From an uncultured Verrucomicrobiota bacterium (GTDB taxonomy: Bacteria; Verrucomicrobiota; Verrucomicrobiia; Limisphaerales; CAIMTB01), in NCBI GenBank assembly GCA_964476125.1, contig CAYZAE010000006.1:21273-69980 (forward strand): DNA of 48,708 nt, in the 5' to 3' direction. The notes under the pieces were generated by a model. It had not been told where the DNA came from and made no database searches. It saw only the letters and a program-made list of their open reading frames with translations. Numbering within the stretch: position 1 is the stretch's first letter; every line of letters starts with the position of its first letter. The translations under genes were made by a program, and so were the position numbers. Below, in pieces: positions 19,944-21,807 of the stretch.

Positions 19944-20956
19944 GGGCGCTCCAATCGGACCTGGTACAGACCCTGGTCCGCGGGGGGATGTGAATCCTCC
20001 AGAATCCACTGCGAACCCTCCATCCGGAGGGTGGATGGGATGGTTTCCCAGGAACGGGGCGCATCGCCCTTGGCCCGCTCCAGAAAGGGAATCCATCCGT
20101 TCGCGGCGGCATGGTTGGGGAGTTTGACGGTTCCGCGCCCAGCACTTTGGAGTGCGGGGCGGGGCGGTTCCGGGAATGTGACCACGATGTCATCCACCCA
20201 TCCCCGGGCCAGCAGCGATCCGGCGTAATTGGCGGGCTGGCCCGCCCCGCTGAAGCTGGTGACGGAGAAGGCATCGACTCGAAAATCCGAGAACCCCGCA
20301 TGGAGGGGCACGGACTCGGCTGCGACGATCTCGAGGTCCCGGGAGGCCCGGAGTTGGAGGGACTGATCGACCGGGTCGAATGCGACGGAAACGTCGTAAG
20401 GCCGGCCTGTCGTCAGCTCAACCGGGAAGACATGGAGGGTGGTCCACCGCAGGTTGTTGGTCCCGATCGCTACGGCTGCGAACGTCGGGGAAATGGCCCC
20501 CGCTCCTGGGAAATAGTTGAACTCGACGAGATCCCTGGGGCCGGTGGTTGGATGAACACCGGAGCCGCGAAGGAAATTCCCCTGGAATGCGCGATCCCGG
20601 CGGAGAAATCCCACCGCCAGTTGAAAGGTGCCCGACTCGGCGGCGGTGCGGATTTCATCGAGCTGGATCCGGAACGCGAACCGGAACGGATCGGATCGCG
20701 AGAGCACGGTTCCCAGGGGGCGATAGAAGTAGGTGTTGGTTCGTGAGGAATCCCAAGTCGCCGCGAGATGACCGCGGGCGGCGTCCCAGGCGAAAAGGGA
20801 GGAATCCCCACGGATGGACCATCCCCGGGTGGCGGGGTCGGAGCCGAACGTCTCGTGCCATTCGGTTGCGGCACTGCTGAGCAACCCGAGAGCCATGGGG
20901 AGCACCCTCGCGCTCCACTGTCGCGCAGCGGTTGGATATCCGCGTGGCTCGTTCAT
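19940..20956 (-). CDS. Hypothetical secreted protein
   Basis: 338-aa ORF coupled by ATGA overlaps on both sides; N-terminal hydrophobic signal-like stretch; beta-rich body. Confidence 0.75.
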
Positions 20957-21807
20957 TGCGACGAGGGATCGCTGGGGAGCCGGCCACCCGTTCGGGCCAG
21001 GCGACGTCGCTGGAGGGTGAGAATCGCTGTGCCGGCAGTCAGCAGTGCCAGGGACGAGGGTTCGGGTACGGCTGAAAAGGCGTCGATATCCGCCCGGCCC
21101 GAGAGCACATCGACCCGGACAAACTCGATTTGCCCGAGCCGGGCAGGTGTGCCGTCGGAGTGCCTGGCCCAGGCGATGTCGTAACCGGTGCCGCCTCCTG
21201 AACCGGCGTATTTCGAGCGAATTCCGTCGAGCGCAAGACCGGCAAAATCATCGCCGGATAGCGTGGGATCCACGGGAAGGCTGAAGTCGCCCTGACCGTC
21301 GGTGGGGAAAAGGCCGTCGACCTTGGGGGCATGGAGCGGGTCGAGGGTGAAGAAGTTCAAGCCGTCGGCGCTGACGGAAACCCGGGTTGAGCCGGGGTTG
21401 TCACCGAACAGGGAACCGTCGGTGATGCCTCCGCCGCTGTAGTCGCCGTTGGTGATGACGAAGGCGCTGCTGGAGAAGAGGGCGAAATCGAGGCCGAACG
21501 GATTTGTGGCCAGGTCGAAAACCGGGGCCAGGAATCGTACGGTCAGCGAGCCGCCTGCGCCGACGGACAGGAGTTGCTCCGGTTTCCAGGGAGCGTTGAA
21601 CGGGTCGACGGGTCCGCCGAATTCGCCGGGGGTTTCCCGGGAAGGAACACCGAGGACGGCGGCTGGGGTGCGGTAGGTGTCCGGGGTGCCAGCGCCGGAC
21701 TGATAGTTGATAACCCAGGCGGCATGATTGGCTGCCTGGGTGGACGGCAATGCCAGCGACGCAGCGACAAGAGTCGCCAACGTCGCGGGGGACGGGATCA
21801 ATTTCAT
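20953..21807 (-). CDS. PEP-CTERM surface protein, BtuH-like putative cobalamin-binding domain
   Basis: Signal peptide MKLIPSPATLATLVAASLALPSTQA; C-terminal VPEPSSLALLTAGTAILTLQRRR; first gene behind the cobalamin riboswitch. The BtuH resemblance is from recalled motifs only. Confidence 0.8.
   Translation of the reverse strand: MKLIPSPATLATLVAASLALPSTQAANHAAWVINYQSGAGTPDTYRTPAAVLGVPSRETPGEFGGPVDPFNAPWKPEQLLSVGAGGSLTVRFLAPVFDLATNPFGLDFALFSSSAFVITNGDYSGGGITDGSLFGDNPGSTRVSVSADGLNFFTLDPLHAPKVDGLFPTDGQGDFSLPVDPTLSGDDFAGLALDGIRSKYAGSGGGTGYDIAWARHSDGTPARLGQIEFVRVDVLSGRADIDAFSAVPEPSSLALLTAGTAILTLQRRRLARTGGRLPSDPSSQ

Follow-up and report, generated by a model that had tools for sequence, protein, structure and literature searches.

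In a 48,708-nucleotide stretch of DNA from an uncultured member of the Verrucomicrobiota (the window), we identified a cobalamin riboswitch followed by a cassette of three genes that encode, in order, a BtuH-like PEP-CTERM protein, a lectin-fold protein and a pilin-like protein. Our preferred reading, held with moderate confidence, is that the first protein is a divergent BtuH-fold, PEP-CTERM accessory for corrinoid capture and that the pilin-like protein likely stands in for the TonB receptor BtuB. It is highly probable that the cassette serves B12 acquisition; that the pilin-like protein itself carries the outer-membrane step is a proposal on which we are evenly divided.

The riboswitch aptamer (RF00174; 22007..22192, minus strand) was matched over the full model at 89.2 bits against a gathering threshold of 31.5 (E 8e-21) and sits 200 nt ahead of the start codon of gene 1; it is the only RF00174 match found in its own genome, for which 150 of 892 candidates were scored. 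Gene 1 (P0001, 284 aa; 20953..21807, minus strand), a single-copy gene in its genome, encodes a putative signal peptide, a BtuH-like jelly-roll domain (residues about 25-248) and a PEP-CTERM tail. It is followed on the same strand by gene 2 (338 aa; 19940..20956), whose predicted secreted product combines a legume-lectin/ConA-like beta-sandwich with a small C-terminal beta domain, and by gene 3 (273 aa; 19122..19943), which encodes a type IV pilin-like protein. The genes are joined by ATGA overlaps, the start of gene 2 lying on the stop of gene 1 and the start of gene 3 on the stop of gene 2. The first-pass annotation of this DNA, made from the letters of the window, had tied gene 1 to B12 without noticing the riboswitch or genes 2 and 3; the connection is backed by the riboswitch, which shows the B12 link of gene 1 far better than the protein motifs do.

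The arrangement recurs in relatives. Among the best 80 of 243 genome loci with orthologs of gene 1, whose titles are almost all Verrucomicrobiota, 50 were given a genome search, and a riboswitch lies 43-519 nt upstream of the ortholog match, on the same strand, in 50/50 of these genomes; in 42 of them no other was found, with 40 candidates scored in each. A candidate expression platform, consisting of a hairpin and a T run, is seen in 51/79 ortholog leaders, vs 21/79 coding stretches and 6.7 in shuffles, which suggests attenuation; the window's own copy (21877..21924, minus strand) is atypical and the terminator scan made no call there. Neither a sigma-70 promoter nor a minus-strand terminator was called in the scan. 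Near-identical contigs cover the leader in 4/4 metatranscriptome runs (one study, small shares) and, in 1/4, parts of gene 1 as well (two pieces of 151 nt), coverage that does not demonstrate transcription or, for the leader, attenuation. Gene 2 is present in 74/80 ortholog loci, in 12 as a fusion to gene 1, and gene 3 in 65/80; where at least 2.2 kb of downstream sequence is available (n = 64), the counts are 61 and 59. When the neighbours of the 80 loci were clustered, other real genes beyond the cassette formed clusters in at most eight loci, and a TonB-receptor cluster was absent among the conserved neighbours.

A pilB, pilT, pilB, pilC cluster (12846-18838, plus strand) converges on the cassette in the window. 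We rejected these adjoining genes as functional evidence and dropped their adjacency from the argument because only 5/80 ortholog loci have PilB/PilT-like genes at a distance of up to 7 kb. Two more pilin-like paralogs lie beside the riboswitch, at 22346-23056 (plus strand) and within 23638-25113 (minus strand), and both group with non-riboswitch paralogs in the pilin tree. Elsewhere, the window carries genes for an ECF sigma factor, for its possible anti-sigma factor (predicted to be a membrane protein) and for a bactofilin-like plus RDD protein (25598-28636, plus strand), as well as heme pathway genes for a flavin oxidase, a HemN-like radical SAM protein, uroporphyrinogen decarboxylase and porphobilinogen deaminase (4099-11187).

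How closely is gene 1 related to BtuH? From three stretches of the protein and the motifs of the BtuH family, the first-pass annotation had proposed that the B12-binding module of Bacteroides BtuH is displayed here through PEP-CTERM sorting. The stretches are located in P0001 at residues 80-116 (LSVGAGGSLTVRF..NPFGLDFALFSSSAF), 142-149 (RVSVSADG) and 208-233 (GYDIAWARHSDGTPARLGQIEFVRVD), and the BtuH motifs it gave match the corresponding 7BIZ and 8BLW stretches. Comparison by profile and by structure, which it had suggested as a check, places BtuH2 (7BIZ) and BtuG1 (8BLW) at the top by profile, Foldseek and VIA-align alike. A single-sequence search of the PDB with P0001 returned 7BIZ as its top row at a non-significant E of 0.3; a profile of the 80 close relatives reached 8BLW_B at E 7.5e-6 and 7BIZ_A at E 0.021, and a wider profile of 51 sequences reached them at E 2.8e-7 and E 7e-4, respectively. 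HHalign of a canonical BtuH profile (111 sequences, seeded with a natural domain of the BtuG1 kind, taken from a Bacteroides finegoldii record and aligning fully to 7BIZ and 8BLW) against both family profiles gave probabilities of 98.3-99.3 along the domain. Used in reverse, the canonical profile recovered 148/270 family members (E<1e-3); P0001 was its sole pick from the 48,252 ORFs of the genome, but a weak one (E 0.53, 11 bits). With the AlphaFold2 model of gene 1 (pLDDT 82.6), Foldseek placed BtuH/BtuG1 at ranks 1, 2 and 4, with 8BLW and 7BIZ at the top (E 5.9e-6 and 7.8e-5) and at low TM-scores (0.33-0.39), while VIA-align set residues 25-248 of the model on 317-592 of the 7BIZ chain (Z 12.9, rmsd 3.4, 151 aligned), followed by a second BtuH-family hit at Z 12.6 and, as the best unrelated structure, PAPP-A at Z 9.9. 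The core jelly roll of the model appears to be of the common CBM32/discoidin type, which tempers the weight of the fold match, and carbohydrate modules share it at Z up to 8.7 and 5-14% identity. Taken at the level of the family, the profile and model comparisons establish homology to BtuH and point to P0001 as a divergent member. The family is large: of 7992 candidates scored, 1110 proteins reached E<=0.001, and clustering at 50% identity gave 1735 representatives in a separate search. Its domain matches no family in Pfam or NCBIfam, and the nearest clusters in a protein atlas are unnamed. The named PEP-CTERM equivalogs were rejected for gene 1, as they match the tail only and far below cut-off.

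Homology of fold is one matter and conservation of the binding site another. According to the accessible text of PMC8941943, BtuH contacts B12 through Y510, W577, W511, H476, N399, Q333 and F401, and the metal ligands given in the accessible text of PMC13616437 are E406, E584, D522, N399 and S582. Six of these residues (Q333, N399, E406, D522, S582 and E584) are each invariant in 111/111 canonical BtuH domains. Their conservation in P0001, which the first-pass annotation had proposed to check, mostly fails: in a profile alignment, which is not a superposition, the counterparts are T41 for Q333, S113 for N399, G139 for E406, a deletion for D522, R238 for S582 and D240 for E584, leaving only Glu584 with a like residue. 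The idea of the same B12-binding module thus stands as far as homology to the BtuH domain is concerned (profile, HHalign and fold) and falls as to the identity of the module, since most B12-contacting residues are changed. Position 240 is E or D in 78/80 close relatives, position 113 is N in 42/80 and S in 31/80, and the aromatic F334 and F401 map to the conserved Y45 and F116. Gene 1 lacks the loops that carry W577 and D522 in BtuH, and the H476/Y510/W511 region aligns poorly; the mapping comes from sequence alignment, the middle part of which (about 150-200) is unreliable. Near-invariant loops specific to the family lie at 55-78, 118-139, 168-171 and 200-206, two of them with low model confidence.

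Such changes could mean that gene 1 has lost B12 binding and is a calcium-stabilised glycan-binding or scaffold module, attaching the cell to B12 producers or holding the gene 2 product and the pilin as the actual binders. The loss of most BtuH ligand residues would be expected on that account, the folds that come next after BtuH are CBM32, fucolectin and discoidin domains (Z 8-9.9), gene 2 is itself lectin-shaped, and gene 1 is missing from 20/37 pilin cassettes in the class. Yet the Z of BtuH exceeds that of every lectin by 3 units, the invariant residues of gene 1 cluster in sequence loops beside the BtuH-equivalent motifs, the asparagine equivalent to N399 is retained in 40/51 wider family members, and DUF4465, a known binder, takes the same slot in other cassettes; we consider the loss of binding quite improbable. 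The pattern of losses and new conserved loops leads us to infer, instead, a pocket rebuilt relative to BtuH, and gene 1 probably binds a corrinoid directly. Anchor, operon and ligand residues place it outside BtuH in the strict sense, but it likely works like BtuH.

The proposal that PEP-CTERM sorting replaces the lipoprotein anchor is supported. There is no cysteine in P0001, and residues 247-269 (21001..21069, minus strand) contain VPEP, a hydrophobic helix and RRR, matching TIGR02595 at 20.2 bits vs a cut-off of 16 and PF07589 at 20.3 bits, 0.4 under its cut-off of 20.7; a similar tail is found in 67/80 ortholog loci. The model has a C-terminal helix at 252-273 and a hydrophobic N-terminal helix at 7-18, where the putative signal peptide was recognised in the sequence by eye. 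A Pfam scan of the 32 window ORFs agrees with the earlier remark that no exosortase lies in the window; the genome has four (PF09721 above cut-off), all on contigs other than the window's, together with about 80 PEP-CTERM-like ORFs. Sorting of this kind is usually tied to exopolysaccharide and surface functions. Weighing against the surface site assumed for gene 1, more of the PEP-CTERM proteins of Akkermansia were detected in intracellular than in outer-membrane fractions, according to the part of PMC4960237 available to us.

The gene 2 model (pLDDT 93.8) is a legume-lectin-like sandwich, and its fold search gave a best Z of 15.5 to peanut lectin among many similar rows with no standout. Gene 2 matches no NCBIfam family and no Pfam family at E 0.05, hence not PF14717 (DUF4465/BtuJ); BtuJ is also absent from the top 50 rows of the fold search, which leaves room for a likeness to it. 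Gene 3 scores 20.0 bits with TIGR02532 (cut-off 16.3) and 16.3 bits with PF07596, under the cut-off of 23.3 (an ortholog reaches 43). It has a G/FTLAE cleavage/methylation motif, of which F1 and E5 are invariant in 60 orthologs, and a C-terminal pattern that we take to be of the H-X9-DG type. Gene 3 is one of 88 pilin-like paralogs in the genome. A quick tree, built from rows of usual length with a usable motif, separated 39 riboswitch-linked pilins from 82 paralogs across one branch at weak support (SH-aLRT 53) and placed the window's pilin within a 25-member clade at support 99.

A major question arising from this arrangement is [quoted passage not shown] In an even sample of 151 class genomes, each at least 90% complete, 95 including our own had a riboswitch match (15 candidates were scored per genome and some matches missed). 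For the other 94 genomes, the DNA following each of the 135 matches was fetched to a length of up to 7 kb, and its genes were classed. The riboswitch leads to a pilin in 37 of these genomes, to a TonB receptor in 47, to both in 0 and to neither in 10; within the window's own taxonomic order, it leads to a pilin-like gene in 20/21 sampled riboswitch-bearing genomes. Both types occur, pilin to receptor, within families f27 (8 to 7, one truncated) and f26 (2 to 3) and within genus g49 (4 to 2). The Fisher p of 5e-17 for this exclusion is overstated because the genomes are kin, 20/47 receptor genomes belonging to one family and not being independent, and we give it no weight.

The composition of the pilin cassettes is itself informative. 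A BtuH-like gene is present in 17/37 and gene 2 in 18/37, other cassettes carry DUF4465 (ahead of the pilin) or further secreted proteins, and a BtuF-type gene follows the pilin in 4/37; gene 1 is a dispensable accessory and the pilin the constant part. BtuJ (DUF4465) is a proven B12 binder in the accessible text of PMC13616437. Only one of 18 class genomes with a riboswitch-led BtuH-like gene (G057) has a receptor at the riboswitch locus. There the BtuH-like protein, and in G109 a PEP-CTERM DUF4465 protein, sits beside a TonB receptor without a pilin; therefore, the binders need no pilin at these loci. This shuffling of binders between pilin and receptor loci fits a capture role and argues against the pilin as a mere exporter.

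The same sample contained other arrangements. A second cassette type, in the same taxonomic order and including the window's genus (L089-L092, L096, L118, L121, L124), has a more divergent BtuH-like domain within larger proteins and a pilin of another subclade, in some cases followed by a small Cys-rich CWC/DUF5522 protein. At L179 and L181 (G097, G106), riboswitch operons combine genes for secreted proteins with those for a DUF4430 protein and for an ABC ATPase and its membrane partner; neither a pilin nor a TonB receptor lies within 7 kb. In family f18 (L197, L198, L202, L204, L207, L192), the riboswitch lies ahead of a 1320-aa autotransporter in six genomes, and in family f19 (L101, L103, L107, L111, L112) it lies ahead of a radical SAM/SPASM protein in five.

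Is the pilin, then, anything more than a means of export? It could be argued that genes 1 and 2 provide surface reservoirs of B12, that the pilin-like protein serves solely for their export or display, and that passage across the outer membrane falls to an unregulated TonB receptor or some other channel. With 88 pilin-like paralogs and about 80 PEP-CTERM-like ORFs in one genome, the pairing could be generic; the genome also has 10 TonB-receptor matches, the best of which, at 229 bits against the riboswitch-receptor profile, is inside the range of divergent true riboswitch receptors (118-318). That best match, however, adjoins a YfiR-associated sensor kinase, and, as seen above, pilin and riboswitch receptor never occur together in the 94 genomes and the binders of G109 and G057 sit with a receptor and no pilin. 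Genome-wide cross-searches are relevant on both sides. Across the 47 receptor genomes, the pilin profile gave no hit better than 5.8e-29, vs 1e-54 to 1e-77 for five positive controls, with two controls from divergent pilin subclades scoring at paralog level only. Conversely, a 12-sequence receptor profile scored nothing above 229 bits in 38 pilin genomes, vs 556-814 for ten held-out receptors, and 29/38 had no match at E 1e-30; because riboswitch receptors of other lineages score 118-318 bits or are not among the matches listed, these figures leave room for a divergent importer in the pilin genomes. TIGR01779, used as a test for BtuB, was above cut-off in 0/51 genomes, a weak negative as only 1/14 control genomes passes. 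On balance we think it unlikely that the pilin merely exports or displays the binders.

The host evidently has a use for B12: its genome (93.25% complete) encodes MetH and methylmalonyl-CoA mutase, as well as two short MetE-like proteins, and contains 10 B12-binding-domain matches, of which nine are above cut-off. CbiC, CobS and PF01497 (BtuF) were not found in it, and FecCD (BtuC) gave matches under cut-off only. Thus, no BtuF/BtuC-type importer accounts for the route into the cytoplasm even though B12 enzymes are present, which weighs against our preferred reading; PF01497 was found in 12/50 ortholog genomes. Could the cassette instead take up cobalt or replace a B12-dependent function, as do the CbiM, MetE and NrdA/NrdD targets of riboswitches? 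The genes under riboswitch control in the class do include cbiM, cbiK, metE and nrd, but neither CbiC nor CobS was found in the genome to make use of cobalt, all three cassette products look exported with no enzyme match, it is TonB receptors that are missing wherever the pilin stands behind the riboswitch, and four cassettes have BtuF after the pilin. This possibility has very little to recommend it.

Under our preferred reading of a capture accessory and a pilin in place of BtuB, low B12 would open the riboswitch, probably by relieving a terminator, and the gene 1 product would be exported by Sec and then processed by exosortase. It may hold cobalamin in a pocket remade from the four conserved loops at 55-78, 118-139, 168-171 and 200-206, with F116 and D240 kept, and gene 2 would provide a second binder or an adaptor. 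The pilin-like subunit, within a type IV pilus or pseudopilus, would bring the vitamin across the outer membrane. More broadly, and somewhat short of an even chance, many Verrucomicrobia may import B12 without BtuB, and mostly without BtuFCD, via a type IV pilin-like subunit devoted to this task, to which exchangeable surface binders deliver the vitamin.

What would follow from this? With a remodelled, exosortase-sorted version of BtuH, the family reaches into Verrucomicrobia and a PEP-CTERM protein acquires a specific job that can be tested, although the main interest is in the pilin cassette, which is led by a riboswitch and occupies the place of BtuB. Should B12 cross the outer membrane by way of the pilin, there is a second route beside BtuB and a defined ligand, with a simple growth assay, for a large unexplained protein family; it would also be a pilus-based route of small-molecule uptake and a model in which dozens of paralogous pilin-like proteins per genome serve other nutrients. 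Our literature search, made mostly without subscription papers, returned no paper in which a PEP-CTERM protein takes part in cobalamin uptake, no description of a riboswitch-led pilin cassette or of pilin-based cobalamin uptake in Verrucomicrobia, Planctomycetes or the PVC group, and nothing relevant linking DUF1559 or H-X9-DG pilins to B12. The accessible text of PMC13616437 and PMC13398666 makes no mention of Verrucomicrob*, Planctomyce* or PEP-CTERM, and the homolog table of PMC8941943 could bear on the range of the family.

Comparison with known systems brings out both what is shared and what has changed. The BtuH proteins described so far come from gut Bacteroidota and a small number of Bacillota, and almost all are accompanied by BtuB. 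Like BtuH2 (BT1956, 7BIZ) and the H domain of BtuG1/BtuGH (8BLW chain B) of Bacteroides thetaiotaomicron, gene 1 has a homologous jelly roll over its whole length, is predicted to be exported, is controlled by a cobalamin riboswitch and belongs to a host that uses B12, apparently without making it. Unlike them, it has a PEP-CTERM tail, no lipoprotein cysteine and about 60 residues fewer, five of the six invariant ligand/metal residues are changed or deleted, and its locus is without btuB or btuG. For over 80% of gut btuH genes, btuB is in the same operon, as given in the accessible text of PMC8941943. With the Bacteroides Btu relay (BtuJ/DUF4465, BtuH, BtuK, BtuG, BtuB and BtuFCD), as presented in the available parts of PMC13616437 and PMC13398666, the cassettes share interchangeable surface binders, riboswitch-led operons and binder fusions, whereas their constant member is a type IV pilin-like protein and not a TonB receptor, and BtuF comes after it in so few. 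The tripartite C-terminal signal of gene 1 and the exosortases of the genome are those of the PEP-CTERM/exosortase system. Finally, gene 3 resembles the DUF1559/prepilin-type proteins of the PVC group, as far as these are covered in the accessible text of PMC4807772, in its N-terminal methylation motif and its many paralogs, and it differs from them in general in that a riboswitch links its subfamily to a defined ligand.
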